A stretch of DNA of 64,000 nt. Origin: Promethearchaeota archaeon. Its GTDB lineage: Archaea > Asgardarchaeota > Lokiarchaeia > Sigyniarchaeales > SOKP01. The notes beneath the pieces were generated by a model. That model made no database searches and was not told the origin of the DNA. It worked only from the letters and a program-made list of their open reading frames with translations. The stretch is from assembly GCA_011364925.1 (NCBI GenBank), contig RDOA01000001.1, forward strand, positions 127,128 to 191,127. Reading direction: 5' to 3'. This document shows positions 35,486-51,498 of this stretch, piece after piece. Positions within the stretch are counted from its first letter, which is position 1, and every line of letters starts with the position of its first letter. The position numbers and the translations under genes are program-made.

Positions 35486-36178
35486 ATGAATACTACTCAA
35501 AAAACTACCACATTGAAGATAATATCAATCGTCCCTTTTGTTCTTGCCTCTATTCCAATTGCATTTGTTTATTTCTTTTTAAGAGATTTACCGTTATTGA
35601 GTTCTTCATTCGTTGAGTATGTTCATGCGGGTAACTCGATTTTCTTCCCCTTTCTCTCATCTCACACAATTATCTTTCAATTTACTACTGGTCATTTAAT
35701 TGATATTATTTTAGTAGTTAATTTTGTTACATTACTCGAAAGAATAGGCTATTACTATTACCAAAAGGTTTGCTTAAAAAGAAATTTCTTAGAATTATCT
35801 TCAGAAACGGGATTTATTGAATTTAATAAAATACAAGAGGAATTGCAGCTAAACTCAGATTTCTTACTGAACCTGAAAGGAGATCCAAATCCTATTTTAA
35901 ATGAAGAGCTATTAAATCTTAAAGATGAGAAGAAAAGTAGAATCTATGCCAACGATCTCTTTTATAAAAAAGGAGATTATGTTAGTATAACAAGTTTGAA
36001 ACATACTTTCTTTAACTCTTTTCGAAGAATGCGAAAAAGAATTACTCACCATTATAAGTATTCTTCTATCTTTCTAAACTCTTCAACTTATTGTTTTTCT
36101 ACGAATTATTCCCCTCCTTTTATAAGAAATTGTGCATTTTCTAATCCTTACACGAATATACAAAAAGAGGAGGGATAA
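35486..36178 (+). CDS. Hypothetical membrane protein upstream of the rSAM/prenyltransferase operon
   Basis: 230-aa ORF in very AT-rich DNA with 2 hydrophobic segments; no recognisable family. Confidence 0.5.
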   Translation: MNTTQKTTTLKIISIVPFVLASIPIAFVYFFLRDLPLLSSSFVEYVHAGNSIFFPFLSSHTIIFQFTTGHLIDIILVVNFVTLLERIGYYYYQKVCLKRNFLELSSETGFIEFNKIQEELQLNSDFLLNLKGDPNPILNEELLNLKDEKKSRIYANDLFYKKGDYVSITSLKHTFFNSFRRMRKRITHHYKYSSIFLNSSTYCFSTNYSPPFIRNCAFSNPYTNIQKEEG

Positions 36179-36263
36179 AAATTGAACAACCAATTTTTTA
36201 CTATTTTCAAATTAATATATAAAAACCAAAATAAAATAATAAAAAGTTTCAATCAAAAAGGAA

Positions 36264-37637
36264 GTGAAAATAATGGAATGGAATGAAGAAATTGAAGGTT
36301 TATATACGAAAATAACAGATATGACGCCTGAAACCTTCCGAGCCTCAGTTAAGCCGATGCTCCGCGAAGCCGCCGAAAAAACCGCTCGTTTAAGAAATTC
36401 TGGTTATGTAAGCAAGGATGACTTATTATCTGCTTTATTCGAGATTACACCACCAGCGTTTCAACCTACTGTTATAGAAGATCTAAAAACAATAGGAATC
36501 GATTCAGAGCGATACATACAATTATCATCAATTAGACAAGAATATGCTCGTACATGGGACGAAATTAGTGGTGCTTTTCTACCTGGTGTTTACCATTTTA
36601 CTATATATCTAACGGATCGATGCAACCAAAATTGTCTCCATTGTGCTGCTGCTGTGATGGAAAAACGTCCAGAATTTCCTACGGAAACCTGGATTGAAAT
36701 TATTGAGGATATAGAACAGAGCTTGCGAAAACAAGGTCGTCGAGGATGTTATATATGGTTTGGAGGAGAACCTACTATTCGCAAGGATCTTAAAGACTTA
36801 ATAAAATACTGTGGTGAAAAGGGCTATTATCAAGCACTTGCTACTAATGGAATTTTGTTTAATGATGAACTGGCGAAAATATGCGCAGAAGCTAAGATGA
36901 GTCATGTCTTTATTAGTTATGATAGTACAGATCCTAAGCGGGCCGCAAAAATTAGGGGGCATCCAAAAGCATACGAAGCGGCTGAAAAAGCGTTAGATTT
37001 AGCTGCAAAATATGGGCTTTTTACCATTGCTAATGTAACAGCACAAAAAGAGAATTTTGATGAATTAGATACATTAAGGGAATATTTTCAATCTAGGGGC
37101 GTAACTCCCTTTTACAGACCTCTAATCAAACAACGTTCAGCAGATTTAAATTGGGACGAAATCGGCTTAAATATAGATGAATATCGACAATTTTATGATT
37201 TTAGGAATAAACACGCTATTGAGGCTATCAGAAAAGGAGAAGCTTCTTCTCTCAATAAATTCTATACGTGGGATATGGTGCCATTTATGGAGTGTCCTAT
37301 GAATGATGAGGAAAGGACTGCAATCGAATGGGGTACAGGATGCCAAGCCTGCCGTTCAATCTCCGGAATTGATACTAATGGAGATGTATTCCCTTGCGAT
37401 TATCCCTCTGATTTAATTTTAGGTAACATTCTTGAGCAAAGCTGGGGAGAGATTATGGAAACCGAAATGTTTAAAGCTATTAGAGATAGGCAAATAAAAG
37501 GAAAATGTTCTACTTGCCATCATCTTGACATGTGCGGAGGAGGGTGTAGAGTTCATGCCGAAAACGAAACTGGTGATTTTTTAGCTTCTCTTCCGTTTTG
37601 CTGGCATAAAATTGATCATAAACATGAAAATTGTTAA
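36264..37637 (+). CDS. Radical SAM/SPASM enzyme with an N-terminal DUF2621/PCP_red-like module
   Basis: CNQNCLHC, FGGEP; SPASM GCQAC..GDVFPC..CSTC..MCGGGCR..FCW; N-terminal MEW..P..FR..AAEK..TPPAFQ..EDLK..GID module; start may be ATG 36273. Confidence 0.92.
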   Translation: MKIMEWNEEIEGLYTKITDMTPETFRASVKPMLREAAEKTARLRNSGYVSKDDLLSALFEITPPAFQPTVIEDLKTIGIDSERYIQLSSIRQEYARTWDEISGAFLPGVYHFTIYLTDRCNQNCLHCAAAVMEKRPEFPTETWIEIIEDIEQSLRKQGRRGCYIWFGGEPTIRKDLKDLIKYCGEKGYYQALATNGILFNDELAKICAEAKMSHVFISYDSTDPKRAAKIRGHPKAYEAAEKALDLAAKYGLFTIANVTAQKENFDELDTLREYFQSRGVTPFYRPLIKQRSADLNWDEIGLNIDEYRQFYDFRNKHAIEAIRKGEASSLNKFYTWDMVPFMECPMNDEERTAIEWGTGCQACRSISGIDTNGDVFPCDYPSDLILGNILEQSWGEIMETEMFKAIRDRQIKGKCSTCHHLDMCGGGCRVHAENETGDFLASLPFCWHKIDHKHENC

Positions 37638-37652
37638 TTTTGGCGAATTTTA

Positions 37653-39059
37653 ATGGAATGGGAAAAAGAAACTGAAGTACTATTTAACAAAATAGTGGAA
37701 CAAATGCCTCAGGGTTTTCGACCATCCGTAGAACCTATGATTGTAAAAGCTGCTGAGAAGAGATGTCTTGAGCGAAACGGTGCCTATATCAATAATGCTG
37801 ATGTGGTTACAGGAATATTTGATATTATTCCTGAAGCATTTAAACCCATCATGGTTGAAGATTTAAAATCTTTAGATATTGATGTGGAACGCTATATTGA
37901 GCTTAAAGAAATTAAGGATAGATTAAAAGTAGAATGGGAAAAGCTTGAAAGAGGCTTTCATCCCGGAAACATACATTTCGCTATGTATGTTACCGATAAA
38001 TGTAATCAAAAATGCATACATTGTGCTGCAGATGATCAAATACCTCGGCCAGAATTATCCACCGAACAATGGTGTCAAATAATAAAAAATGTTGAAACAG
38101 GATTGCGAAATCAAGGTAGACACGCTTGTTTCGTTTGGTTTGGGGGTGAACCTACGTTGCGTAAAGATATCGGTGAGATTATGAAGTTTTGTAAGGAAAA
38201 TGATTATATCCACGCATTGATTACCAATGGAGTCTGCTTTGACGAAAAATTCGTTAAAATGTGCAAAGATAATAATATAAGTCACGTATTTGTAAGTTTT
38301 GACAGTACAGATCCAAAGAAAAATGACAAAATTCGTGGATTTTCTAATTCCTTAGACTATGCTAAGAAAGCTATAGATTTATGCTTAAAGTATGGAATTT
38401 TCGTGTGTTCTTCAATTACAATAATGAAACAGAATGTAGATGAATTAGAAGATTTAAAAGCGTTGTCTGAAAAATGGGGTTCGCAACCTTATTTCCGGTG
38501 TGTAGTTAAACAAAATCGAGCAGCAGAATTTTGGGACGAAATCGGTCTTAATACGGAAGAATATAAAAAAATGTACGATTTTAAGTACAAACACGCCATT
38601 GAAACAATAAGACAAGGTAAAGCGGGAACACTACCAGCTTATGAAATATACGATATGGTACCTTTTATGGAAAAGCCTAAAAACGATAAAGAAATGGCTG
38701 CAATTGAATGGGGGGTTGGATGCTTAGCTTGTCGAACTATGATGGGGATTGGCATTGATGGTACAATATACCCTGCGGGATATCCTACAACATTAACTCT
38801 TGGAAACGCACTTGTGGATAATTTCGAGGATATTTTAAATTCGCAGTTGTATAAAGACATTCGGGATAGAAAGAAGATTAACGGTAAATGTGCTTCTTGC
38901 CATCATTTAGAGTATTGTGGGGGCGGATGTCGTGTAACTGCTGAATACATTACTGGTGATTTTTTCGGATCCTTCCCATTTTGTTGGCATGAAAACGATC
39001 AGGAGCATACATCTAAAGCTGAAAGCATAAAGACAGAAGAAACTGAAATAATTGAATAA
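37653..39059 (+). CDS. Radical SAM/SPASM enzyme, paralog 2, with an N-terminal DUF2621-like module
   Basis: CNQKCIHC, FGGEP, GCLAC..CASC..YCGGGCR..FCW; colinear with 36264. Confidence 0.92.
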   Translation: MEWEKETEVLFNKIVEQMPQGFRPSVEPMIVKAAEKRCLERNGAYINNADVVTGIFDIIPEAFKPIMVEDLKSLDIDVERYIELKEIKDRLKVEWEKLERGFHPGNIHFAMYVTDKCNQKCIHCAADDQIPRPELSTEQWCQIIKNVETGLRNQGRHACFVWFGGEPTLRKDIGEIMKFCKENDYIHALITNGVCFDEKFVKMCKDNNISHVFVSFDSTDPKKNDKIRGFSNSLDYAKKAIDLCLKYGIFVCSSITIMKQNVDELEDLKALSEKWGSQPYFRCVVKQNRAAEFWDEIGLNTEEYKKMYDFKYKHAIETIRQGKAGTLPAYEIYDMVPFMEKPKNDKEMAAIEWGVGCLACRTMMGIGIDGTIYPAGYPTTLTLGNALVDNFEDILNSQLYKDIRDRKKINGKCASCHHLEYCGGGCRVTAEYITGDFFGSFPFCWHENDQEHTSKAESIKTEETEIIE

Positions 39060-39095
39060 AAATAAATGATTAAAATCTAAAGAGGCGGGATTAAA

Positions 39096-40511
39096 ATGCG
39101 TGTACTTATTGTGTCTGGAAGCAGAGAGATTGTACATGTTATGGTTCCCCCTATAGGTGAAGCATATCTCGCAGCTTATCTTATAAAACAGGGACACGAT
39201 GTTAAAATACTTGATTTAACCCTTAGTGCTGATTATAAACATGATCTCGAAAAAGCCATTAGTTCTTTTAATCCCCAAATAATTGGGCTGTCTATACGAA
39301 ATATTGACTCGACAACATATCCTGGAAATTTATTTTTTTACTTACCTGTTAAGAATATTGTTTTGTATATTAAAGAGCTAGTTGAGCCTCAGGTTCCAGT
39401 TATATTAGGCGGTTCAGGATTTTCTATTTTTTCTGAAGAAATCCTTAAAGATTTAAATCACAATTTTGGCGTTGTTGGTGAAGGTGAATACGCATTTGCC
39501 GAAATTTTGAAATACATTGCTGATGGTAGAGATCCAAGAGAAGTTGAAAAGGGTATTTGTTTTGTCGATAATAATGGAGTTTATCATCAAAAACCTCCTT
39601 GGCATGTAGAAAACTTAGATGATTTACCTTTTCCTATACGAGATTTAATTGAAAACGATGCCTACTTTATCGACCCATTGAAAAAGTCTGGAACCTATTG
39701 GGGGAATATACAAACAAAGCGGGGCTGTTCTATGAATTGTATTTATTGCAGTTATCGATATGTTGAGGGATCGTATCCACGCTATCGTTCCCCTAAAAAA
39801 ATTGCCGAAGAGATTGAGTTAATGGTAAATAATTATGGAATTAAGAATATTTTTATTGTTGATAGTGTTTTTAATTTAGATTACGATCACGTTCAAGATA
39901 CTTGCAAAGAAATAATTAAAAGTAATGTGGATGTTAAATGGGGCGCAAACTATGCACCGAGCAAAAATTTTATTAATTTAATGCCACTCATGAAAGAAAG
40001 TGGTGCAGTGCATTTAGCAACTGGGATTGAGTCATTATCAGAAGAAATGTTGAAAAATATGCACAAAAATCGATCCCCAGACGATGCAATTCTTACTTCA
40101 CAAAAATGTATTGAGTTAGAGATTGAACAACTCATGCATATGATTGTTGGAGGTCCTGGTGAAACTCTAGAGACGATAAAAGCCTCCTTTAATCAATTAG
40201 AAACTATTAAGAGTTTTAATGGAGATTTATGGCAAGGGGATGGAGATGTATTGGTCTTTATAGGAATGAGAATCTACCCCCATACCCCTCTACAACTTAT
40301 TGCCGAACAAGATGGAGTAATTCAAATTGGTGAAAATTTGTTGAAACCTAAATTTTATATATCTCCCAAAATTAAAGAAGCAGATTTATTTAAGTTAGTC
40401 AGAGAATATGGTAAATCTAATCCAAGATGGATGATGCCAGGATTAGGTTTTAATAATCCAGATGGATTTGCTGAAATGAGCCAAGTACAATTTGCAATGT
40501 ACCAAAACTAA
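39096..40511 (+). CDS. B12-binding radical SAM protein, probable C-methyltransferase (TsrM / lipid-biosynthesis B12-rSAM-like)
   Basis: PPIGEAYL, LSIRNID, LGGSGFS, GEGE, IQTKRGCSMNCIYCSY..EG, GGPGET, GMRIYPHT. Confidence 0.88.
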   Translation: MRVLIVSGSREIVHVMVPPIGEAYLAAYLIKQGHDVKILDLTLSADYKHDLEKAISSFNPQIIGLSIRNIDSTTYPGNLFFYLPVKNIVLYIKELVEPQVPVILGGSGFSIFSEEILKDLNHNFGVVGEGEYAFAEILKYIADGRDPREVEKGICFVDNNGVYHQKPPWHVENLDDLPFPIRDLIENDAYFIDPLKKSGTYWGNIQTKRGCSMNCIYCSYRYVEGSYPRYRSPKKIAEEIELMVNNYGIKNIFIVDSVFNLDYDHVQDTCKEIIKSNVDVKWGANYAPSKNFINLMPLMKESGAVHLATGIESLSEEMLKNMHKNRSPDDAILTSQKCIELEIEQLMHMIVGGPGETLETIKASFNQLETIKSFNGDLWQGDGDVLVFIGMRIYPHTPLQLIAEQDGVIQIGENLLKPKFYISPKIKEADLFKLVREYGKSNPRWMMPGLGFNNPDGFAEMSQVQFAMYQN

Positions 40512-40552
40512 AATATGAAAAAAATATAAAAAAAGAACGAGGATAAAATAGA

Positions 40553-41725
40553 ATGGAATGGCAACCAGAAGTTGAACAACTCTTTGAGAGTATTGTATTA
40601 GGAGTTCCTGAAATGGTAAGACCTGCAGTAAAACCCGCGCTTTTTGAGGGTGCAGAAAAGAAATGTATGGAACGAAATGGTAAAAAAGTAGCTGAAGTGG
40701 ACTTGATTGTCGCTTTGTTTGAAGTAACACCCCCAGCTTTTCAACCGACAATGATTGAAGATTTGAAAAAACATGGAATAGATTATAATAGATATTTAGC
40801 AAAAGTACAATCAGAGTTTAAGTTGCATACCGATATTAATCAACTAGTAAAAGATATAATAAAAATTTCCGAATTCACGGGTGTACGAAGCAATGAAGAA
40901 GCAATCCGGAAGGGAATAAAAGCTTACGAAAAATTTTTTGCCGGAGCTCCTCTATCTATCAGAACTACTACAAAACCTAAAGAACGAAGGGATGTTGCGG
41001 CAAGATACGTAGAATTTTTTATTCCACATAACCCAGATCCCTATACAACAGCTATTAATAAAGGTATTTTGGTAAATGATGGGCATCCTATTCACGATAT
41101 GATTGTGGAAGCGATAAATACTTTCGAAATTATGGGTTATGGTGTTGATATTGATGCTAGTAGTGGATTATCTAAGATCTGGCCGTTTGTGGTTCCAGGT
41201 TCAATCGATCCTATCTTCGCTATGAAGTCAATACCAAGCAGTTTTAAAGGTTATAGAGATTACTTTGATAAACATAAATTAACAGCATTTAGTCTTTTTG
41301 CGTTTGATTTTTTGCATAATACAATTAATATTTATTTTATGTTAAAACAACCATTTAAATCATCCTATGAAAGTTGTGTTAGTCTTGTTGAAGATTTAGG
41401 GTTTAAAGTAGCATCTGAAGAAGCGATGAAAGGTTGTGTAGAAGCAGCGCATCTTAACTTTACTTTTAGTTGGAATTCAGATAAAATCGAAAGATTGTGC
41501 TTCGGCATAACATGTAACGATCCAAGCGAAGTTCCTATACACTTGCACCCATTAATAAAAGAATTTGTTGAAAAAGCTCCTTTACAGAGTGATTCAAGAA
41601 AATTCATTTGGGGGGTAACCTTTACGAATAATGGACTTTATTATAAAATCGAAAATGATTATAACGGGGCGATGGTGGACTTCTTACAAATGGGATGTAA
41701 AGCTGGATTAGATTATTACCAATGA
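40553..41725 (+). CDS. ABBA-type soluble aromatic prenyltransferase (CloQ/NphB, PTase_Orf2-like) with an N-terminal DUF2621-like module
   Basis: DPYTTAINKGIL..GHPI, YGVDID...GLSKIWPF, FAFDF.H.TINIYF, FTFSWNS.KIERLCF, GLYYKIENDY follow the order of CloQ/NphB motifs. Confidence 0.82.
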   Translation: MEWQPEVEQLFESIVLGVPEMVRPAVKPALFEGAEKKCMERNGKKVAEVDLIVALFEVTPPAFQPTMIEDLKKHGIDYNRYLAKVQSEFKLHTDINQLVKDIIKISEFTGVRSNEEAIRKGIKAYEKFFAGAPLSIRTTTKPKERRDVAARYVEFFIPHNPDPYTTAINKGILVNDGHPIHDMIVEAINTFEIMGYGVDIDASSGLSKIWPFVVPGSIDPIFAMKSIPSSFKGYRDYFDKHKLTAFSLFAFDFLHNTINIYFMLKQPFKSSYESCVSLVEDLGFKVASEEAMKGCVEAAHLNFTFSWNSDKIERLCFGITCNDPSEVPIHLHPLIKEFVEKAPLQSDSRKFIWGVTFTNNGLYYKIENDYNGAMVDFLQMGCKAGLDYYQ

Positions 41726-41763
41726 ATTTATATCAATAAAACTTAACTGGACTATTGTGAAAT

Positions 41764-42915
41764 ATGAGGTTTATAATAGACGGAGAGTATCAAAAAGAAT
41801 TGATTTCTCGAATTAGTAGAGAAAATTTACCAGTTTCACATATTATTGTCCATGTTCCCCTAAATCCCTTCGGTAATGGATCAATTTTCCTTCCTAAAGT
41901 TTTACCTAATTTAGAAGAATTCGAAAAATATACAAAACTAATTCAAGATTATGGAATCACACCTATTGCAGGTATCGATTCTACTTGTCAAGGAAATTTA
42001 GAAGCACATATCAAGCAAAACTCAGCATACAAGGTTCTAATTGGTGAACTCAAAGATTTAGGTTATAAGGAAATACTGGTCTCCTCGCCAAATAATGTCG
42101 GATTTCTTAAAGCCAATTTTCCTACGATACGAATTTATCTTGCTTATTCACAATACGTAACATCTCTAAATAGAGCAAAGATCTTCTTCGAATTAGGAGC
42201 TGATTCTATTACGCTGCATCCAGATGTAATTAGAAGTTTTTATGCATTAGAGAATTTTATCAAATTAAAAGAAAAGTGGGATAGCTCTTGTAACGTTGAA
42301 TATATTTTGCCATTAAATATTGGGTGCAATTGGGGCTGTATTCAGTGGTTTCAACACCATAATTTGCAAAGCCATCGAACAATAGCCTCTCCTTTGTCAT
42401 CGGAGCAACAAAATAATTCAGACATAGAAGATGCATTTGATTACCCTCTTCTTTATTGTTGGAGAAAACGACTTGAAAAACCCGTTAACTTTTTAAAAGC
42501 AGGGTGGATTTCTCCTGATAATATTGAATTATATGAAAATATTGGTTATTCTACATTCTTATTGCTAACAGGAGGATTTTCAGTAGATAAAATTGTGAAA
42601 ATCGTCCAATCATATACCAATAAATCTCTTAATAATAGTTTTAATGAGTTTTTAAATATCCCTCAACCATATGGTGCTTATTGGTCAAAAGATGAGTTAT
42701 CAAATTCGATATTACAGCTTGAACCTGAAGTCATTAAGGAGTTTAACAAGAATTTCCCGTATTATGTTACTTATCTTGATGAACGGGAGATAAACCATCA
42801 TTGTTTAAAATACGTTAGCAAACTCCCAAATGGAAGCTTTTCTGATAAGCAAAAACTGATTCAGTTAATCACTAATAAATTAAATGAAATTGAAAAAGGA
42901 GCAGTAAATAGGTGA
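41764..42915 (+). CDS. U32 peptidase-family protein, divergent
   Basis: Colinear with the two downstream U32 proteins (IDSTCQGN, GADSITL, NIGCNWGC..HH..QSH, YC, WISP) but lacks the KIxGR motif. Confidence 0.7.
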   Translation: MRFIIDGEYQKELISRISRENLPVSHIIVHVPLNPFGNGSIFLPKVLPNLEEFEKYTKLIQDYGITPIAGIDSTCQGNLEAHIKQNSAYKVLIGELKDLGYKEILVSSPNNVGFLKANFPTIRIYLAYSQYVTSLNRAKIFFELGADSITLHPDVIRSFYALENFIKLKEKWDSSCNVEYILPLNIGCNWGCIQWFQHHNLQSHRTIASPLSSEQQNNSDIEDAFDYPLLYCWRKRLEKPVNFLKAGWISPDNIELYENIGYSTFLLLTGGFSVDKIVKIVQSYTNKSLNNSFNEFLNIPQPYGAYWSKDELSNSILQLEPEVIKEFNKNFPYYVTYLDEREINHHCLKYVSKLPNGSFSDKQKLIQLITNKLNEIEKGAVNR

Positions 42916-42919
42916 TTTA

Positions 42920-44971
42920 ATGCGTATTTCCTTAGCATGTAATTGGAAATTAGATTTACTAAAACTATTAGAAACTGAAGATAGTATTAAATCGGTCGTC
43001 CATGATTTATACGGTACTTATGATCTTAGTTTTACAGGATCCGGTCGTCCATTTCTATTAATGCCTCATAAGGACAAATATGAAATCGAACATTATATCA
43101 ATAGGGTGCATGATTTAAATTTAAAATTCACTTGGTTATGGAATGGCAGTTGCCTTGGATATTATAAATTCAATTCTGAAGAACAAACAAAGGCATTAAA
43201 AGAACTTGATTGGCTTGACGACCTTGGTGTGGAGTATCTTACTGTCTCAGATCCATACCTTGCAAGGTTTGCAAAAATTCATCACCCAAAATTAAAACTT
43301 AAGGTTTCGGTGATAGCGGAAGTCAATTCTCTCTCCCGTTCGCTAGATTGGGAAAAGATTATTGGATCGAATGGAGTGCTGACCTTATCTATAATGCTTA
43401 ATAGAAACTTTCCACTTTTAAAGGAAATTAAAAAAACAGTGAAATGTGATATTGAATTGCTCACTAATGATTGCTGTCTCTTTGAATGTCCATTCCGCTT
43501 TTTTCATTATACTGAATGCTCCCATGCGAGTCAAACTCACGATATTTTAGAAGGATACTATAATGATTGGGCAACTATAGCCTGTCAAAATCAAAAATGT
43601 TTCAATAAGGAACAAGTTCTTATAAGTAGATGGATTCAACCGTCTGATCTTGATAAATATATTGAAATTGGAATTGACTATTTTAAGATCTCCGGTCGAA
43701 GATATGGAACTAAATGGTTATATCGAACATTAAAGGCATATAGTCAAAAATCATACGATGGTAATCTTGGAGAGATTTTTAATGGATACTCTTTTGTATC
43801 TGATCCTTTGGAACTTGCTGGTGCTCAGTTTTCCGAATTTACAGCAAAACAAGAAAAGATGGGAGGAAATCCAGATGACATGGGGATTATGCTGAGTGTG
43901 CCAGATTTTGATGCTGAATTAAGAGCTGATAAATTAAACACATTTATTGAGTATTTTCCATTTCAAGGAGCAAAGTGTAATGATAACTGTGGTATTTCAT
44001 GTAATTACTGTCATCAAAAGGCGGAAGATGCTTATTTCGTTCCCTCAAAACAAAATGCAGAATCTTATAGAAACTATATGCTATATCTTTTAAATTATCT
44101 AAACTCTGGTGATATGTTTTTACCAGAAGAACAGAGAAAAAATGAAAAACCTATTAATAAAATTGAATCAGATACCTATATTGGACTTCCTTGGATTCCT
44201 AAAGCAAAAAAATTTTTTGAGGAGGCTATGCTAATAGTTCCAATGGAAATGCAAAAAGCCGCAAAAAAGGGTATAGGGTATACTGCTGAAAGAACAGCAG
44301 AAAGAAAAGGATTAAGTCATGTGGATCAAGAGTTAATAACATCAATAATTATCGAGTTGGTCCCTCAACCGTTTAAACATGATGTAATTGATTTTTTAAT
44401 CGAAAAAAATATCGATCTCTCACTTTTTATGAGTGATGATGAAATAAAATACGCGAAATCTTTACCTTATGGAACAGAATTGATGGCTCAAAGAGCAAAG
44501 GAAAAAGGTCTCGTAATAGAAAATTCAAATTTTATTGAAAATGAGAAAAAAATAGAAAAAAATATTGAGGTGAAAATGAATTTGAACACAAAAGAAGAAT
44601 GGGAAGCGTATCTTACACGATTTATGAAAGCTTATAATGAATTACCTGATTTAGCTTCGATGTTAGAACCTGTTGCTCCGTTATTATTTCAATACGAAAT
44701 AACTGACAGACCTGAGATGAATTACTGGCAAAGAATTGAAAAAAACAGAATGGATTGGGGTATGGGAGAATATTCTGGTCCAGAAGTGCCAAAAATAATT
44801 CATAGAACCGATTTTGAGACGATGAAAAAAGTAAACTCAGGAGAATCTGATCCGATCCAAGCGACAATGGCAGGTACATATGTAGTTGATGGAGATCCTA
44901 CCAAATTAATGGCTTGTGCACCGCTATTGCCTCTTAATCCCAAAGCTCATGCAAAAGCGATGCAACAGTAA
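42920..44971 (+). CDS. U32-family Fe-S protein fused to a DUF2621-like module and a C-terminal SCP2 lipid-binding domain
   Basis: GSGR, NDCCLFECPFR..H...SH, FKISGRR, CNDNCGISCNYC; internal LPW..P module; SCP2 signature LFQYEI...G..DPIQATMAG.Y.VDGD. Confidence 0.85.
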   Translation: MRISLACNWKLDLLKLLETEDSIKSVVHDLYGTYDLSFTGSGRPFLLMPHKDKYEIEHYINRVHDLNLKFTWLWNGSCLGYYKFNSEEQTKALKELDWLDDLGVEYLTVSDPYLARFAKIHHPKLKLKVSVIAEVNSLSRSLDWEKIIGSNGVLTLSIMLNRNFPLLKEIKKTVKCDIELLTNDCCLFECPFRFFHYTECSHASQTHDILEGYYNDWATIACQNQKCFNKEQVLISRWIQPSDLDKYIEIGIDYFKISGRRYGTKWLYRTLKAYSQKSYDGNLGEIFNGYSFVSDPLELAGAQFSEFTAKQEKMGGNPDDMGIMLSVPDFDAELRADKLNTFIEYFPFQGAKCNDNCGISCNYCHQKAEDAYFVPSKQNAESYRNYMLYLLNYLNSGDMFLPEEQRKNEKPINKIESDTYIGLPWIPKAKKFFEEAMLIVPMEMQKAAKKGIGYTAERTAERKGLSHVDQELITSIIIELVPQPFKHDVIDFLIEKNIDLSLFMSDDEIKYAKSLPYGTELMAQRAKEKGLVIENSNFIENEKKIEKNIEVKMNLNTKEEWEAYLTRFMKAYNELPDLASMLEPVAPLLFQYEITDRPEMNYWQRIEKNRMDWGMGEYSGPEVPKIIHRTDFETMKKVNSGESDPIQATMAGTYVVDGDPTKLMACAPLLPLNPKAHAKAMQQ

Positions 44972-45001
44972 GAATAAAATCAAAAATTAGGTGGATAATC
45001 A

Positions 45002-46408
45002 GTGAAACTACATGTAGCTACAAATTGGGATTTAGATCTAATCGATAATTTAGCTCAATTCCCCGTATCTGGATTATATGGCGTCTCAGACCACTCAATA
45101 GTTGGAGGGGGTCGTCCATCTTTCTTGCTACAACAAATCTCAGAAGAAAGAATCGCGGAATATATAAAAAAAGTTCACGAAAACAATATGGAGTTTTCCT
45201 ATCTATTAAATGCGCCCTGTATGAACAATATGGAATACGATCCGCATTATCATAAAGAACTTATTGAGTACTTGCAGTGGATTAGTGATATCGAAGCAGA
45301 TAGCGTAACAGTAACTATCCCATTTTTAATACAGCTCATCAAGGAACAATTTCCAAGGCTAAAAATCCGAGTTTCTACAATAGCTCATGTGAATAGTGTT
45401 AATCGCGCAATGTTTTACGAATCTCTTGGAGCAGATGAAATTACGCTTGATGTTATGATAAATCGTGACTTTAAAACTTTAGAACAAATTCAAAAAGCTG
45501 TGAAGTGTAAACTAATTGTCCTCTTAACAGATGGATGTTTATTTCAATGTCCTTTTAGATATTATCATTACAATACTTTAGGACACGCTTCGCAAACTTA
45601 TCAACAATTTGAACGTAATTATGTTGACACATGTATCTTAAACTGCAGTATTATCAAATTTTCTGATCCAACAGAAGTTATAAAAGCAAGGTGGGTCCGA
45701 CCTGAAGATTTAACTCACTACGAGGCAATTGGAATCGAGAATTTTAAAATTGCGGGGCGTCGTATGTCAACCCAGTGGATTACTCAATCTGTGAAAGCCT
45801 TCTCTTCGCGAAAATATAATGGGAATCTTGTTGATATAATTCAAGGCTTTTCAATGTCACATGGTGGTTTAGAACAAAAGGATCCAAATGTAAAATTAAG
45901 TGAAACGATCGGAAAGGAGTCTAAATCAAAACTCGTAATTGATAATACCAAACTAGACGGATTTATAGACTTTTTCAAAAAGCAAAATTGTATAGCGATG
46001 TGTAACGCATGTTCGTATTGTGAAGAATGGGCGAAAAAAGCAGTAATATTAAATGAAGAAGAATCTCAGAGATATGTAGAATCGATAAAGGGGTATATGA
46101 ACGATATTTTATCCAGTCGCGAATTTGGTCTTGCAGCCGCTAAACCAAAGGAAAAAGTAAAATCAGGTTTAGAATGGGATAGTGAAACTCAGAGAATATT
46201 TGATGATCTTATATTACTCTCCCCGCCTCAGTTTCAACAAATGGCGAGAATGGCAATATCATCGCTTGCTGAAGAGAAAGCCAAGAAAAGAGAATCAGAA
46301 GTAATTGAAAACCAAGATATAATCGATGCGTTCATAGAAGGAACTCCCGGAGCGTTTCAAGCTGATATGAGAGAAGGTTTAAAAAAACACGGGCTTTTAG
46401 AAAAATAA
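45002..46408 (+). CDS. U32-family Fe-S protein with a C-terminal DUF2621-like module
   Basis: GGGRP, LNAPCMNN, DGCLFQCPFR..H..GH, FKIAGRR, CIAMCNACSYC; C-terminal LEW..PPQF..AEEKA..TPGAFQ..GLKKHG. Confidence 0.87.
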   Translation: MKLHVATNWDLDLIDNLAQFPVSGLYGVSDHSIVGGGRPSFLLQQISEERIAEYIKKVHENNMEFSYLLNAPCMNNMEYDPHYHKELIEYLQWISDIEADSVTVTIPFLIQLIKEQFPRLKIRVSTIAHVNSVNRAMFYESLGADEITLDVMINRDFKTLEQIQKAVKCKLIVLLTDGCLFQCPFRYYHYNTLGHASQTYQQFERNYVDTCILNCSIIKFSDPTEVIKARWVRPEDLTHYEAIGIENFKIAGRRMSTQWITQSVKAFSSRKYNGNLVDIIQGFSMSHGGLEQKDPNVKLSETIGKESKSKLVIDNTKLDGFIDFFKKQNCIAMCNACSYCEEWAKKAVILNEEESQRYVESIKGYMNDILSSREFGLAAAKPKEKVKSGLEWDSETQRIFDDLILLSPPQFQQMARMAISSLAEEKAKKRESEVIENQDIIDAFIEGTPGAFQADMREGLKKHGLLEK

Positions 46409-46430
46409 ATTTCTTTTTTCTTTTTTTATC
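46409..46430 (+). terminator. Oligo-T archaeal terminator of the 36264-46408 operon
   Basis: TTTCTTTTTTCTTTTTTT immediately after the stop codon. Confidence 0.5.
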
Positions 46431-47178: not shown

Positions 47179-47226
47179 AATTTAGATTAGAAGAAAATAA
47201 AATAAGAATTAATTGTATGTGATATT

Positions 47227-47791: not shown

Positions 47792-49108
47792 CTAATATAT
47801 CCAATCAATAAGAGACGAACAACTTTTTCCTTGAGCGTTCTTCAATCTACCTAAGATTCGAAAAGTAGCTCCTTTGTAACCACACTCCGGGCATCTGCTG
47901 CCCGAGACTTGTTCTACTATGTCGTCTACTAAAACAGCTTGATTAATTGAGCCATTAACCCCATAAGGTGTAATAACCTCTAAAAGACCTTCTTCTTCCT
48001 CCTTTACAGCATCTAGATTTTCAAGATCTCTTACAATTATCCGAGATGTATTAGGGCAATGGAGTAAAAAATCTTGATATTTCTCAGACCAATGCCCTCC
48101 AAAAAGAGTGGGTCCTTCAGTAAAAGCATAAATATCTCGAATATCCGTTGATTTTATGTTAAACACTTTTTCGTAAGATTCTATGAATTTGCTTTTATTC
48201 ACAGTGGCCATCTTCGCTTCACCCTTAACACCATCCCACCCGCCACCTCCACATCCAACAATAGCTTTTCCATCGAGATCTATAAAGACATTCTCTTTTA
48301 ACAGCCTTTTTTCAAACATATTATTCATTAAAAGCGGACTTCCGCCGAACAAAACTTTACTCGCTTCAGTATCTTTCCAATAACCTGTTTTTAGGATTCT
48401 TCTAATAATCTTCAACATTTTAGAGACATCAAGCACAAAACCACCCTTTAACGAAAAAGTTGATATAATTGCCCAGATTGTCTTTAACCATTTCATTTTT
48501 ACTAAGTATTCCTCGTGGCCATAAAATTCCCATGGTTTGTTCATACAAGCTGTAAAGTATCGAGTTTTATCAATGTATTCAAATCCTTCAGCACTTCTTC
48601 GTGCCATTATTGACATGAATAATCGATCCGGTGAGAAATTAAACACTACTCCTCTTTTTGAACCTGATTTTAATTCCTCCCATTTAAAGAATTCCGTAAA
48701 TACCTTAATTGAATTGTATTGAATTTGATCAAAATCTTCTAATGTTCGAGGAACAATTGAAGGATCTCCTGTTGTTGAAGAAGAACACGAATAAAGCGCG
48801 ATCTTCTCCTGTGGAACTTTTAATAAATGTAATGTTCGATTTCCAGATTTTTTATAAGTTTCTGTTGGAATGTATGGAATTGTTTCTAAACTTTTAATAG
48901 AAAGTTCATCAGGAACCGTAAAATCAAACTTCTTACACAGATTTTTTCTGTAATACTCACAATTGGTATAGGATAAATCAATTTGATGTAACACTTCTTT
49001 ACAAAACTCATCATCTGTAGATTCTCGCGAAGTAAAGTTAAAATATTTCGTTTTCAAGTCTTCCGGTAAGAGATCATGAAATTTAAGAAACAAAATACAT
49101 ACCTCCAA
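47792..49108 (-). CDS. LuxE-like acyl-protein synthetase (ANL superfamily)
   Basis: IPYIP...YK, SSSTTGDPS, GGGGWDG, DIYAFTE, GLLEVITP, DDI, RILGR...GKSCS with a terminal Cys as in LuxE. Confidence 0.78.
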   Translation of the reverse strand: MEVCILFLKFHDLLPEDLKTKYFNFTSRESTDDEFCKEVLHQIDLSYTNCEYYRKNLCKKFDFTVPDELSIKSLETIPYIPTETYKKSGNRTLHLLKVPQEKIALYSCSSSTTGDPSIVPRTLEDFDQIQYNSIKVFTEFFKWEELKSGSKRGVVFNFSPDRLFMSIMARRSAEGFEYIDKTRYFTACMNKPWEFYGHEEYLVKMKWLKTIWAIISTFSLKGGFVLDVSKMLKIIRRILKTGYWKDTEASKVLFGGSPLLMNNMFEKRLLKENVFIDLDGKAIVGCGGGGWDGVKGEAKMATVNKSKFIESYEKVFNIKSTDIRDIYAFTEGPTLFGGHWSEKYQDFLLHCPNTSRIIVRDLENLDAVKEEEEGLLEVITPYGVNGSINQAVLVDDIVEQVSGSRCPECGYKGATFRILGRLKNAQGKSCSSLIDWIY

Positions 49109-49187
49109 AATTTATTTATGTATTATTTTATTCCAAATAAAATTGATTGATATAAAATGTTAAATAAAAAAGTAATAAAAAATATTA

Positions 49188-50540
49188 TTACATATTAGAT
49201 AAAGCTAGTATTTCTGCTTCTTCGCGTTCTAATAGCATTGGTGTTTTCTCCCAACTTATCTCTTTAGGAAGTTTAAATTGGCGTAAAAACATGTAAAGAT
49301 GGATAAATCCGCTTATGAGGAAATAAAATATAAGCGAGTAGTGCTTATCACAATACTTTCTTATTGAGTTAAATATGTATCCAAACTGAAAAAATATACA
49401 CGACAAAGTCCATATTAGCATGTAATGTTCTCCGGTTAAAAATTGAAATATGGCAAATATTATCTCTATTGGAAGCCAAGTATCCATATTTCCGAGCGCC
49501 ATCATGGTCATATTTCTCGCGATAATTAACTTTTTACCATCTTTATATTCGCTCTTCATTGCCATTAATTGAGGCATATCAAATACATATCCCGCAAGCC
49601 AACGAGTGCGTTGCTTTACCAAAATATCCCAGCTATTTGGAACATACTCATAGACCTTAGCTTTCGGTGAAAATCGAATAAGTACACCATCTAAATTCAA
49701 AAGTACGGAGAGATAAAGGTCTTCCGTCATTGAATCTTCATTAAATCCCCCATATTTCTCAAGGTACTTAGTTCTAACCGCGAAATTCCGTCCAAAAGAA
49801 TAAGCAGAAGATCCTAACCTATTTTTAACTTCGAATAACAAGCCACCACCAGAAACCATGCCGTAATCCAAAAATATCCCTCTCGTCAACATATTGTCTT
49901 TCCAGTTCTTAACGAGTACAGGACCAATGACTGCTTCTGTTTTTTCTTTATGGAATGGAGAAATCAAGTTTTTAAGTGAATCAGGTTTTAAAATGCAACC
50001 TGAATCGTAGAGTATTACAATATCATTTTTTACATGTTCTAATCCATAATTGAGCGCAGGAGGTTTTCCTTTTTTAGGTAAATCCTTTGATAATACGATT
50101 ATGTCGATATCCTTATGTTCCTCCGAAAAGCTTGTTGCAAAACTTGTTGTATCGTCAGTAGAACCACTAGTTATTACTATAACTTGCATCTTATCTTTAG
50201 GGTAATCTGATTCAACAATTGAGTTCAAGGTTCTTTCCAACAACACCTTTTCGTTTTTACAAGCAATCATAATGCTAATGTTTTCATAATGCGTAATTTT
50301 AGGTTTGTACCCGCTCCCAAAGGATGCGAAGAAATGAACTCCATAATAAAGAACAAAACCTAACAACATAAATAATCCCACTAACGGGAACACAAACCAC
50401 CAATAGGTTAAAGGCGCTGCTAAAAAGGTATCAATCGAATCTTTTATCCCCGAAGTTAAATAAGGGGGAAAATAGATGTATAATAGAACTAAAAATACTA
50501 ACCAAATAGACCCGTACAACAAATATCTATACAATTTCAT
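49188..50540 (-). CDS. Membrane glycosyltransferase family 2 (cellulose-synthase-like)
   Basis: GSTD, GKPPALN, TEDL, QRTRW (QxxRW), WEKTP; TM helices at both ends. Confidence 0.9.
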   Translation of the reverse strand: MKLYRYLLYGSIWLVFLVLLYIYFPPYLTSGIKDSIDTFLAAPLTYWWFVFPLVGLFMLLGFVLYYGVHFFASFGSGYKPKITHYENISIMIACKNEKVLLERTLNSIVESDYPKDKMQVIVITSGSTDDTTSFATSFSEEHKDIDIIVLSKDLPKKGKPPALNYGLEHVKNDIVILYDSGCILKPDSLKNLISPFHKEKTEAVIGPVLVKNWKDNMLTRGIFLDYGMVSGGGLLFEVKNRLGSSAYSFGRNFAVRTKYLEKYGGFNEDSMTEDLYLSVLLNLDGVLIRFSPKAKVYEYVPNSWDILVKQRTRWLAGYVFDMPQLMAMKSEYKDGKKLIIARNMTMMALGNMDTWLPIEIIFAIFQFLTGEHYMLIWTLSCIFFQFGYIFNSIRKYCDKHYSLIFYFLISGFIHLYMFLRQFKLPKEISWEKTPMLLEREEAEILALSNM

Positions 50541-50565
50541 TTTACATCAACTCATTTTTTAATTA

Positions 50566-51498
50566 TTATGCTTCTGCTTTCTCAAGTTTCCTTAAGTTTT
50601 TCCAGATGTAGTTTGCAAAGAGAATAATTGATAAAACCATAATAACTAGTAAACTGGCTTGATAGATGAACATACTCCATGTAATTGTCCAAGCGTGAGA
50701 ACTGTTCCATATTGTTGCAGAAGGATTCACTAAGTAAGTCAAATATACAGTAAAGCTAGAGACACCATACATTACAAAAAATGTAGCACTAACAATTACT
50801 CGTGTAATTCTCTCTCCAATGAAAGGTTTTGTCTCAAGCAATCCCAAACCTTCGTGTCTCGCTCTCATATACTCGTAAATAAATATGAGAAATATGTTTG
50901 TCCACACCATCCAAGTAAAGTCAAGCCCGAAAGAAGGAAATACTAATAAACTCGTAGGAACGAAACATACCAGCATCAAAATATCACTTATTCTATCCAA
51001 GATATTGTCCAACCACGCACCAGTTTTTGATTTAATATCCAATAATCTCGCGATTGCTCCATCTATTCCATCACCAATACCTGTAGCTAGCACAAGTACA
51101 GCGAGAAGGAAAAACCACGATCCATAAAAAGGTTGTTGAGTAATGAGATCAAGCGTATGACCGGTACTTGCCATTATTACTCCCCAGAAAATGAAAAAAG
51201 AAGCGATCAGGTTTATGTACGATGCCTTATTCGGACTTATGCCCAATTTTATAAAGAGTTTAGCCCCTCTATAAGTTATAGGCATGTAAAGTTTTCCTGC
51301 GGGATCTTTACTCATTTTTTCAAACTGCTGCTCTACTTTATGGGCTTGCCCGTGATCCTTAAGCCAATCTTTTATGAATTCGTCGCATGTCATAAATTCT
51401 CTTTTTGGTTTCTCCTTAAAGACACTGCTAAGAAATATGACTATTAAGAAGAAAAGTAATACCAATGGAAATACTAATGTAAATAATAGTTCTGTCAT
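50566..51498 (-). CDS. CDP-alcohol phosphatidyltransferase family protein
   Basis: SPN, DGIDGAIAR...GAWLDNILDRISD signature, YMRAR, ER. Confidence 0.92.
   Translation of the reverse strand: MTELLFTLVFPLVLLFFLIVIFLSSVFKEKPKREFMTCDEFIKDWLKDHGQAHKVEQQFEKMSKDPAGKLYMPITYRGAKLFIKLGISPNKASYINLIASFFIFWGVIMASTGHTLDLITQQPFYGSWFFLLAVLVLATGIGDGIDGAIARLLDIKSKTGAWLDNILDRISDILMLVCFVPTSLLVFPSFGLDFTWMVWTNIFLIFIYEYMRARHEGLGLLETKPFIGERITRVIVSATFFVMYGVSSFTVYLTYLVNPSATIWNSSHAWTITWSMFIYQASLLVIMVLSIILFANYIWKNLRKLEKAEA

Follow-up and report, generated by a model that had tools for sequence, protein, structure and literature searches.

An ABBA-type aromatic prenyltransferase with an operon-specific N-terminal module in a Loki-type Asgard archaeon

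In a 64,000-nucleotide window of contig RDOA01000001.1 (positions 127,128 to 191,127, assembly GCA_011364925.1), one gene of a Loki-type Asgard archaeon encodes a protein that, judged by profile searches and a structural model, is an intact soluble barrel-type aromatic prenyltransferase (PT) of the CloQ/NphB group. The barrel is preceded by a small helical module that it shares with other enzymes of its own operon. Our best reading, which we regard as moderately probable, is that PT prenylates an aromatic intermediate carried by an SCP2 domain, needs no Mg2+ to do so, and belongs to a tailoring pathway that works without O2. Soluble ABBA prenyltransferases have been described as enzymes of bacterial and fungal secondary metabolism (PMC7253389, PMC7839719); the present finding places an intact one, with deep roots, in the Asgard archaea, the prokaryotes most closely related to eukaryotes.

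An intact ABBA prenyltransferase encoded by a single gene

The gene and its parts are as follows.

40539..40543, + strand: GAGGA, a ribosome-binding-like motif in the intergenic sequence, 9 nt upstream of the ATG
40553..41725, + strand: prenyltransferase gene, 390 aa, shared N-terminal module plus ABBA PT barrel
40553..40819, + strand: shared helical module, DUF2621-like (PT residues 1-89; custom HMM E 2e-38)
40832..41713, + strand: PT-barrel catalytic domain (residues 94-387; ten strands in the AF2 model)

A single ORF from ATG to stop spans exactly this gene, and the reading frame is intact, with stop codons in 0 of ~36 copies of the gene. The sequence-only reading had assigned the product to the CloQ/NphB-type ABBA enzymes from the order of six motifs, and proposed a PF11468 (PTase_Orf2) search and a structure prediction as checks. 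All six motifs were found in the translation in the claimed order, DPY..A...G.L....HP (D162-P179), YGVD (196-199), K.W.F (K208-F212), N.YF (259-262), ERLCF (313-317) and YYK.E.DY (363-370), an agreement far beyond chance. The PF11468 search returned a near full-length match (E 5.6e-48, 164.2 bits, curated cut-off 22), in which PT residues 94-379 align with positions 2-284 of the 287-position model; a whole-genome search recovered the same match as the only one in the 3.9-Mb genome. A profile built from 52 PT homologues, searched against the PDB, matched AmbP3/FamD1 (~3e-59), AmbP1 (2e-58), EpzP (7e-54), NphB (3e-39) and CloQ (1e-20). The AF2 model (pLDDT 94.6, pTM 0.91) is a PT barrel with ten predicted strands between residues 134 and 369, and Foldseek placed it closest to AmbP3 (TM 0.92, rmsd 2.2 Å, E 1.6e-27), with TM-scores of 0.76-0.86 to EpzP (~0.85), NphB and CloQ (both about 0.8). 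Together with the conserved diphosphate-site residues described below, these results bear out the earlier assignment as a whole. The closest relatives are not of the cyanobactin type (PatF/LimF, TM 0.52-0.54) or the DMATS type (TM 0.35-0.56), both at E ~2e-5, AmbP3 being far closer. PT is no new enzyme family, and the NCBI pipeline name for these MAG proteins, "aromatic prenyltransferase", is already right. A literature search, thin in subscription journals, found no paper on Asgard aromatic prenyltransferases.

The diphosphate site and predicted metal independence

Aligned with EpzP, PT residues R137, R151, K208, W210, N259, Y261, R314 and K365 fall on R49, R62, K117, W119, N172, Y174, R232 and K283; aligned with NphB, K208, N259, Y261, R314, K365 and D199 fall on K119, N173, Y175, R228, K284 and D110. 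Among the 52 homologues, K208, N259, Y261, R314 and K365 as well as R151 and W210 were invariant, and R137 was conserved in at least 90%. In EpzP, K117, N172, Y174, R232 and K283 bind the diphosphate, and the position of R49 corresponds to the metal-holding Asp of Mg2+-dependent NphB (PMC3485228). Because PT has the EpzP-like basic set (R137, K208, R314, K365) together with R151, N259, Y261 and W210, its catalysis is predicted to be metal-independent, and it is probably an Mg2+-independent enzyme of the CloQ/EpzP type. As part of our best reading, PT is also predicted to be catalytically competent: the prenyl diphosphate would be held by the four basic residues with N259, Y261 and R151 and then ionised, and an electron-rich aromatic ring would undergo Friedel-Crafts alkylation within the barrel.

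Operon layout and neighbouring genes

The operon consists of seven co-oriented genes with intergenic gaps of 4-85 bp, and the gene order of the cluster is kept in ~45 loci. Besides PT, the following features were annotated in and next to it.

35486..36178, + strand: first cluster gene, small membrane protein (synteny and alignment; no Pfam match)
36264..37637, + strand: radical SAM/SPASM (rSAM/SPASM) enzyme 1 with module (PF04055, PF13186, module)
37653..39059, + strand: rSAM/SPASM enzyme 2 with module (PF04055, PF13186, module)
39096..40511, + strand: B12-binding radical SAM (B12-rSAM) enzyme without module (PF02310, PF04055)
41764..42915, + strand: divergent U32-like protein without module (custom U32 HMM; five fully conserved Cys)
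42920..44971, + strand: U32 protein with module (~427-512) and SCP2 domain (~555-682) (PF01136, module, conserved Cys)
45002..46408, + strand: U32 protein with C-terminal module (PF01136, module, ten conserved Cys including CX3CX2CX2C)
46410..46428, + strand: T-rich tract directly after the last gene (from sequence), likely an archaeal terminator
47792..51498, - strand: trio of LuxE-like synthetase, GT2 glycosyltransferase and CDP-alcohol phosphatidyltransferase (Pfam)

The membrane protein evolves fast (24-33% identity between loci; 33 ORFs across the fetched loci). An identity as M48 peptidase was rejected for it, the atlas score of 0.83 being under the trust level and the sequence containing no HExxH. 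For the two rSAM/SPASM enzymes the best NCBIfam matches were AhbD and NirJ, and also AhbC, at 134-138 bits against cut-offs of at least 500, and for the B12-rSAM enzyme TIGR04072, "lipid biosynthesis B12-binding/radical SAM protein" (276 bits, cut-off 360), with BzaD second; every NCBIfam match of these radical SAM proteins thus falls far under its cut-off. PF01136 matched the two module-bearing U32 proteins with 36.9 and 48.1 bits, the latter for 45002..46408 (cut-off 22.4), and the only named NCBIfam match of the U32 proteins was TrhP, whose 25 bits fall well short of the cut-off of 534. The sole solved sequence relative of the 45002..46408 protein is the U32 protein 5d88, and in homologous loci the 41764..42915 protein and the U32 half of the gene that follows it are 23% identical. 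The SCP2 domain was recognised by Pfam (E 7.6e-4), by precomputed PF02036 assignments in homologues, by Foldseek (UbiJ-SCP2 as best solved match, E 1e-4) and by VIA (Z 11.2 to SCP2 2cx7).

Natural fusions occur, namely SCP2-module-PT, module-PT-SCP2, SCP2-PT and module-rSAM/SPASM-module-PT-SCP2, one of them a 999-aa rSAM/SPASM-PT-SCP2 protein. Since PT is fused to SCP2 and the module in some proteins and to rSAM/SPASM and SCP2 in another, these parts belong to one pathway. Pfam, NCBIfam and neighbourhood searches of the Asgard clusters returned no aromatic-core enzyme and no prenyl diphosphate synthase within the cluster, and the only recurrent extra genes around it were the lipid head-group trio, which adjoins the cluster in 5-8 other loci, and zinc-ribbon membrane proteins. 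The region around the cluster is rich in B12-rSAM genes; a DAHP synthase gene borders one variant cluster, and a HemN-like rSAM gene lies next to one variant cluster.

The shared module

The sequence-only reading had described the N-terminal part of PT as an operon-specific module. A jackhmmer search of every ORF in the genome, with PT residues 1-92 as query, confirmed this, finding the module in five proteins only, all of this operon (the two rSAM/SPASM enzymes, PT and two U32 proteins), and the counts across loci agree, with the module in 76 rSAM/SPASM, 47 PT and 49 U32 proteins. PF11084 (DUF2621) scored 22.2 bits against the PT module, under the curated cut-off of 27.7, and 52 of 61 module sequences matched PF11084 at E<=0.01 (best 1.8e-7); by these scores the module is a distant DUF2621 relative and no member by the Pfam threshold. 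In the AF2 model it is a five-helix bundle with two very short strands. Searched against the PDB by sequence it gave chance-level matches only, and Foldseek with the module returned nothing. VIA alignment gave AAA+ lid-like bundles and PCP_red domains at Z 6.8-8.7, including the PCP_red domain 2kru (Z 6.8) and asr4154 (2l09, Z 7.6) across the whole small domain, values within the noise range for small helical bundles. Its atlas look-alikes were stand-alone DUF2621/PCP_red proteins in mixed clusters. The likeness to DUF2621 (PF11084) and PCP_red (PF08369) thus consists of PF11084 sequence matches and a structural resemblance, and the difference is that the module is here fused to three enzyme classes of one pathway. 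It may be a pathway-specific adaptor that docks its bearer enzymes on an SCP2- or membrane-held intermediate or on each other; judged by architecture, docking would be its most likely role.

Distribution and history of the gene

Asgard MAGs supply more than 100 clusters of homologues (50-95% identity), in agreement with the earlier placement of such an enzyme in an archaeon; five UbiA-family genes are also present in the same genome. That reading had further noted a host-like base composition and proposed long residence. The GC content of the PT gene, 0.346, is close to the mean of 0.345 for the genes of the genome (z 0.03), and its codon-usage distance lies at the 63rd percentile, so the first point holds. 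In the phylogeny the Asgard sequences form at least three deep sub-lineages, between which Deltaproteobacterial sequences are nested, and this deep diversification, together with the host-like composition, supports long residence in the Asgards.

The gene is optional all the same. In the host family it occurs in 29 of 135 genomes, nested within U32-module (34) and GT2 (59) genomes, and within the genus in 9 of 41 other genomes; GT2 was found in 27/29 PT-positive and 32/34 U32-module-positive genomes of the family, counts drawn from related genomes and hence not independent. There are minimal clusters without PT, and therefore the core enzymes need no PT product. Module-bearing relatives also occur in anaerobic bacteria, a range based on cluster names and six metagenome loci, with locus-search patterns specific to the Asgard-type clade. 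One cultured example is Acetivibrio clariflavus DSM 19732, whose module-bearing PT gene has a NUDIX gene as neighbour. The accessory nature of the PT gene and these bacterial relatives together imply that gain, loss and transfer all happened. In our best reading, PT would be an add-on layer over an SCP2/U32 core that co-occurs with the lipid head-group trio.

Comparison with known systems

The closest solved relatives, AmbP1 and AmbP3/FamD1 (PDB 5yk9, 5y4g, 5ynt; TM 0.89-0.92, 28-30% identity), share the PT barrel and the diphosphate-site residues, but they are single-domain proteins of ~300 aa from aerobic cyanobacterial hapalindole/ambiguine indole alkaloid pathways, whereas PT has the extra 89-residue module, belongs to an anaerobic archaeon and has Fe-S and radical SAM enzymes as its neighbours. 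The PT cluster contains no genes of isonitrile or indole pathways. The Mg2+-independent Streptomyces enzymes EpzP/PpzP and CloQ/NovQ share the basic diphosphate-binding set, yet EpzP and CloQ have only 20-25% identity to PT, and the counterparts of EpzP Y220 and T234 are Asn or Tyr and Cys, respectively. Neither the EpzP substrate, dihydrophenazine carboxylate, nor the CloQ substrate, 4-hydroxyphenylpyruvate, has supporting genes in the cluster. NphB (Orf2), the founding ABBA enzyme, belongs to the same Pfam family and has the same fold at about 20% identity; it is Mg2+-dependent, with Asp where PT has R137.

A different likeness concerns the rest of the cluster. As in the UbiT/UbiU/UbiV system, an SCP2 lipid carrier is encoded with two or three U32 proteins, here putative Fe-S proteins, and a natural SCP2-U32 fusion is known in both (PMC6747719); among solved structures the SCP2 domain best matches UbiJ, around which the Ubi metabolon is centred. 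The cluster differs in being without ubiA, D, E, G and X and without any NCBIfam equivalog, in the extra 4-Cys cluster and shared module of its U32 proteins, and in a host genome without the six quinone-using families named below. The Cys spacing differs as well: UbiU/UbiV-type U32 proteins use four Cys for a 4Fe-4S cluster in the pattern CX6CX15CX3/4C or a UbiV variant (PMC6747719), to which the conserved sets found here, e.g. C73, C179, C183 and C215 plus C330/334/337/340, do not correspond exactly. By analogy the cluster would work like UbiTUV, yet it is no member of that system.

Proposed pathway

The computations show to which family PT belongs, its predicted fold and conserved residues, the shared and fused domains, and how the genes are distributed; from these we infer possible substrates, a sequence of reactions, a docking function for the module and the kind of product. 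A hydrophobic aromatic intermediate would be carried by the SCP2 domain, with PT as one step of its oxygen-independent tailoring. The U32 proteins, putative iron-sulfur proteins, may hydroxylate the ring in the manner of UbiU/UbiV, for which prephenate is the oxygen donor (PMC10990095). Genes for chorismate synthase and chorismate mutase are present, so prephenate should be available in the host. The rSAM/SPASM and B12-rSAM enzymes could contribute further C-H chemistry, e.g. decarboxylation or methylation. The cluster probably decorates a greasy aromatic compound, and as its product we consider a decorated membrane or aromatic lipid more likely than a respiratory quinone. We put forward more tentatively, as a possibility that we hold less likely than the reading just given, that Loki-type Asgards and some anaerobic bacteria make aromatic lipids of a class not yet described, which are prenylated and hydroxylated anaerobically, through a soluble multi-enzyme assembly in which a new DUF2621-like docking domain recruits the ABBA PT, the radical SAM enzymes and the U32 hydroxylases to the intermediate on SCP2. 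Such an assembly would parallel the bacterial Ubi metabolon in an archaeon, without oxygen and with parts that are not orthologous. The lipid may represent an aromatic head-group or glycolipid decoration.

Alternative explanations

The SCP2 domain and paired U32 proteins that mirror UbiT/UbiU/UbiV would also suit a respiratory or membrane electron-carrying quinone made by a non-orthologous anaerobic route, with the ABBA PT replacing UbiA/MenA in ring prenylation; prenylation, hydroxylation and methylation are the steps that such a pathway needs, and the biosynthesis of some archaeal quinones is not yet known (PMC13386864). The host genome, however, is estimated 100% complete and contains no NuoH/EchB-type (PF00146), NrfD (PF03916), NarI/HdrE (PF02665), cytochrome b (PF00033), cytochrome bd (PF01654) or VKOR (PF07884) protein, and with these six quinone-using families missing a respiratory quinone is unlikely. 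The cluster is moreover optional even inside one genus, can be PT-less, and encodes no Ubi/Men-type O-methyltransferase or decarboxylase. We hold the quinone explanation improbable, and give it a lower rank than a route in which the cluster tailors archaeal isoprenoid membrane lipids and the PT acceptor is non-aromatic or a lipid head group, with no free aromatic metabolite, which is itself unlikely. That route fits the "lipid biosynthesis" family matched by the B12-rSAM enzyme, the B12-rSAM-rich region with its recurring CDP-alcohol phosphatidyltransferase, GT2 and LuxE-like genes, the SCP2 carriers and the existence of PT-less core clusters. It is opposed by the aromatic chemistry of the relatives: the characterised CloQ/NphB-group enzymes all alkylate aromatic rings, as far as known (PMC3485228, PMC7839719), U32 hydroxylases are reported to act on aromatic or heteroaromatic rings, those of ubiquinone precursors and of RNA bases (PMC6747719, PMC10990095), and the aromatic-stacking W210 (EpzP W119) is invariant. 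If the acceptor is an aromatic group on a lipid, membrane-lipid tailoring overlaps our best explanation. A link to methanophenazine was dropped, the host being an Asgard archaeon and the papers found describing no such enzyme.

Enzymes of the rSAM/SPASM and B12-rSAM types are typical RiPP maturases, and many NCBIfam matches of the rSAM proteins are peptide maturases, although weaker than the AhbD/NirJ matches. In a RiPP pathway they would modify a precursor, PT would prenylate Tyr or Trp, and the leader would be cleaved by the U32 "peptidase" and bound by the module, a small recognition domain repeated on several enzymes as RREs are. The intergenic gaps are nevertheless too small for a precursor gene, no small ORF family recurs in the ~45 loci, though a precursor might lie away from the cluster, and the module is a helical bundle with no PqqD-like chain among the 50 listed VIA matches; SCP2 is a lipid carrier fused to PT, rSAM/SPASM and U32, and by TM-score PT is far nearer to small-molecule enzymes than to PatF/LimF. 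A RiPP pathway is accordingly quite improbable. We give the lowest probability of all, a very small one, to modification of a tetrapyrrole or related cofactor to which PT would add an isoprenoid tail. Its attraction lies in the AhbD, NirJ and AhbC matches, the HemN-like rSAM gene near a variant cluster and the weak likeness of the module to PCP_red of the protochlorophyllide reductase BchB (2kru); the first fall far short of their cut-offs, the last lies inside the noise for small helical bundles, the cluster contains no tetrapyrrole synthesis genes, and to our knowledge tetrapyrrole prenylation is the work of UbiA-type enzymes, which also counts against it.

Implications

What is new in the prenylation of an SCP2-carried aromatic intermediate, as we favour it, is the wiring, with PT fused to a putative adaptor domain and placed among oxygen-independent U32, SCP2 and radical SAM enzymes. 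If the pathway is true, prephenate-type U32 hydroxylation would extend beyond ubiquinone and RNA modification, and the module would be a new protein-docking solution for greasy intermediates. An undescribed lipid or metabolite may then exist in Asgard membranes, which would bear on the membranes and syntrophic lifestyle of these archaea. PT itself could serve as a metal-independent biocatalyst.

Gene, fold and active site of the prenyltransferase

The prenyltransferase and the motif upstream of it are located as follows.

40553-41725, +: prenyltransferase ORF, ATG to stop, 390 aa
9 nt 5' of the prenyltransferase start, +: GAGGA motif, read from the sequence

All six motifs by which the sequence-only reading had assigned this protein to the CloQ/NphB-type ABBA prenyltransferases were found in the translation, in the order it gave, and the Pfam search it proposed matched PF11468 (PTase_Orf2) at residues 94-379 (E = 5.6e-48, 283 of 287 model positions); no other PF11468 gene was detected across the whole 3.9-Mb genome. 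Structure prediction agreed with this assignment: the AlphaFold2 model (pLDDT 94.6, pTM 0.91) comprised a five-helix N-terminal domain followed by ten strands within residues 134-369, and Foldseek aligned it to AmbP3 with a target-normalised TM of 0.92 (rmsd 2.2 Å, 28% identity), to EpzP with 0.85 and to NphB and CloQ with about 0.8, while scores against cyanobactin and DMATS-type prenyltransferases were far lower (TM 0.35-0.56, E about 2e-5).

EpzP is Mg2+-independent, with a diphosphate site formed by R49, K117, R232 and K283 together with N172, Y174 and Y220, and with R62 contacting the diphosphate via water, whereas Mg2+-dependent NphB has a metal-binding Asp at the R49 position (PMC3485228). 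In a HMMER alignment, the first four residues corresponded to R137, K208, R314 and K365, N172, Y174, Y220 and R62 to N259, Y261, N302 and R151, and the cation-shielding W119 to W210. Except for N302, the aligned diphosphate-site residues and W210 were invariant or at least 90% conserved among 52 homologues, and no internal stop was present in about 36 genomic copies. Because of this conservation and the absence of internal stops, we conclude that the enzyme is intact and predict that it is metal-independent.

Operon and N-terminal module

The prenyltransferase lies in an operon of seven to eight co-oriented genes separated by 4-85 bp and ending in a T-tract (35486-46408, +), which besides the prenyltransferase encodes the following.

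+: small, fast-evolving membrane protein (24-33% identity between loci versus 60-87% for the enzymes)
+: two module-bearing radical SAM (rSAM)/SPASM enzymes; best NCBIfam matches AhbD, NirJ and AhbC, all far sub-threshold
+: B12-rSAM; best matches a 'lipid biosynthesis' family and BzaD
+: after the prenyltransferase gene, a divergent U32-like protein, a U32-module-SCP2 protein and a U32-module protein

The SCP2 lipid-carrier domain was supported by a Pfam match (E = 7.6e-4), precomputed PF02036 matches in homologues, UbiJ-SCP2 of the ubiquinone pathway as best Foldseek match, and a VIA-align Z of 11.2 to SCP2. The cysteine sets of the U32 proteins were fully conserved, and both module-bearing U32s had an additional four-Cys cluster.

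The N-terminal module of the prenyltransferase had been proposed to be operon-specific, and a jackhmmer search of all ORFs of the genome with residues 1-92 bore this out, finding it in five proteins, all operon-encoded. It was N-terminal in the prenyltransferase and both rSAM/SPASM enzymes, mid-protein in the 683-aa U32 and C-terminal in the 468-aa U32. Across about 45 fetched loci, it was carried by 76 rSAM/SPASM enzymes, 47 prenyltransferases (C-terminally in three), 30 short U32s and 19 long U32s, and never by the B12-rSAM or the third, divergent U32. Pfam DUF2621 matched 52 of 61 module sequences at E ≤ 0.01, under the curated cut-off. A second predicted model (pLDDT 84.7) gave a small helical bundle resembling AAA+ lid-like bundles (Z 7-8.7), Nostoc 2l09 (Z 7.6) and the PCP_red domain of BchB (Z 6.8), in non-Foldseek comparisons whose range is noise for helical bundles, and its protein-atlas look-alikes were stand-alone DUF2621/PCP_red proteins with weak scores. 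The module is thus a distant, pathway-specific DUF2621-like domain, and its distribution suggests a docking or adaptor role.

Several further genes lie near the cluster. A B12-binding radical SAM gene directly upstream (33801-35312, +), also near the cluster in several other loci at 55-66% identity, could be part of this system or of a B12-rSAM-rich region upstream. Just 3' of the operon, 46606-47787 (+) encodes a pair of zinc-ribbon membrane paralogues (190 and 186 aa) whose family recurs in eight other loci (15 ORFs). In five Asgard loci, the cluster has an actin-family gene (PF00022, E = 1.7e-48, at 11046-12185, +, of fetched locus L030) within a few kb, probably as mere conserved neighbourhood.

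Natural fusions and variant clusters

Homologous loci encoded SCP2-module-prenyltransferase (536 aa; P0056, P0065 and P0067), module-prenyltransferase-SCP2 (530 aa; P0321), SCP2-prenyltransferase and rSAM/SPASM-SCP2 fusions, as well as a 999-aa module-rSAM/SPASM-module-prenyltransferase-SCP2 protein (P0322). These natural fusions show that the prenyltransferase shares one, presumably hydrophobic, intermediate with the lipid carrier and the radical SAM enzymes; the multi-domain proteins would also be useful constructs for biochemistry. P0125 (454 aa) is another such fusion, and across the set the four domains are joined in various orders.

Other genomes of the same family contained minimal clusters of the membrane protein, module-rSAM/SPASM, SCP2 and U32-module without a prenyltransferase, which is an add-on to the cluster. 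Such clusters (L064, G204:C13; L065, G258:C10; L066, G141:C1) had B12-rSAMs at their flanks, and in L066 a module-SCP2 protein of 159 aa and a module encoded on its own (64 aa) were also present. An Acetivibrio-like contig (L058:10001-11713) carried a module-prenyltransferase without Fe-S enzymes and with a NUDIX hydrolase directly after it; AhpC/AhpF-type peroxiredoxin genes and a nitroreductase were neighbours on this Acetivibrio clariflavus-like contig. In a metagenomic variant cluster (L061:10007-14719), the NUDIX hydrolase lay downstream of the prenyltransferase, past two further rSAM/SPASM genes, and a DAHP synthase at the flank and a HemN-like rSAM were also present.

Distribution within the host family

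A gene trio near the cluster is also its neighbour at other loci.

47792-51498, −: LuxE-like synthetase, GT2 glycosyltransferase and CDP-alcohol phosphatidyltransferase

Among all 135 genomes of the host family, PF11468 occurred in 29 (including 13 of the 36 of high quality and, within the genus, 9 of the 41 genomes besides the host), the short U32-module protein in 34 and the trio GT2 in 59, counts that overstate independence because the genomes are related. The U32-module protein and GT2 were each present in 27 of the 29 prenyltransferase-positive genomes, and GT2 in 32 of the 34 U32-module-positive ones. The three are nested sets, with the genes often a few kb apart on one contig. This pattern points to a pathway that decorates a compound of membrane-lipid type, with prenylation as the outermost layer.

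Proposed pathway and alternatives

UbiT (SCP2) and the U32 Fe-S heterodimer UbiU/UbiV carry out O2-independent hydroxylation of ubiquinone precursors, and a natural ubiT-ubiU fusion exists (PMC6747719); prephenate is the oxygen donor (PMC10990095). Chorismate synthase and chorismate mutase are present in the genome. From the likeness to UbiT/U/V, the prephenate donor, the chorismate genes and the DAHP synthase beside the variant cluster, the cluster looks built for O2-free chemistry: its enzymes would hydroxylate an aromatic compound carried by SCP2 and modify it in other ways, and the prenyltransferase would add an isoprenoid group to it. It is not the Ubi pathway itself, which was rejected since the cluster lacks ubi genes, equivalog searches matched none, and the published Cys motifs (PMC6747719) are spaced unlike the cluster U32 cysteines. 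NuoH/EchB-type, NrfD, NarI/HdrE, cytochrome b, cytochrome bd and VKOR families were not found in the genome (estimated 100% complete), while the same searches matched 3-11 of 14 control genomes; these missing quinone-enzyme families count against a respiratory quinone as the product. The genome also has five UbiA-family genes.

RiPP maturation by the radical SAM enzymes and prenyltransferase is weakened by intergenic gaps that leave no room for a precursor, by the lack of a recurrent precursor ORF in the fetched loci, by the fusion of SCP2 to cluster enzymes and by the structural distance from peptide prenyltransferases. Tetrapyrrole modification has in its favor the sub-threshold AhbD/NirJ and PCP_red resemblances and nothing else. 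Tailoring of isoprenoid lipids alone is at odds with the known substrates of characterised CloQ/NphB and U32 enzymes, all of which are aromatic, and it merges with the tailoring of an SCP2-held aromatic if the acceptor is a lipid-attached aromatic group.

Host range and history

The enzyme family is already known, and the NCBI pipeline names these proteins correctly; what is new is the fusion of module and prenyltransferase, its setting in this pathway and its occurrence in archaea, on none of which a paper was found in the literature searched, reviews describing ABBA enzymes as bacterial and fungal. Homologues at 50-95% identity, nearly all exactly 390 aa, occurred in MAGs labelled Promethearchaeota, Loki-, Hermod-, Hod-, Thor- and Odinarchaeota; the host family includes MAG Loki_b32. 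Of 301 genomes sampled from the phylum, 26 matched the query, almost all from one family: 19, including the host, with the prenyltransferase domain, six with the module alone and one with a 26-residue match only. Beyond the 'Thermoplasmata' MAG with a variant cluster, PF11468 was absent from a 301-genome sample of that MAG's phylum.

The host-like composition noted earlier held for the prenyltransferase gene (GC 0.346, z 0.03), and its GC3 and codon usage were likewise those of the host (codon-usage distance at the 63rd percentile). In prenyltransferase-domain trees, module-bearing enzymes clustered together and the Asgard sequences formed at least three deep sub-lineages, in agreement with some genomes carrying two or three paralogous clusters; three sequences from Deltaproteobacteria MAGs were nested in the Asgard-dominated clade (SH-aLRT 98-99), and the Acetivibrio clariflavus protein fell in a separate module-bearing clade. 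As these trees come from quick searches and their outgroup is imperfect, they do not settle transfer direction. Collectively, the data fit long residence, as the sequence-only reading had suggested from composition and the operon-specific module, and diversification in Asgards, along with repeated losses and some exchange between Asgards and anaerobic bacteria. Within the Asgard-dominated clade, one Deltaproteobacteria MAG contributed adjacent, divergent module-bearing prenyltransferase paralogues (P0147 and P0158; JXR76_17705 and JXR76_17700), which might be explained by transfer from archaea to bacteria or by a binning error.
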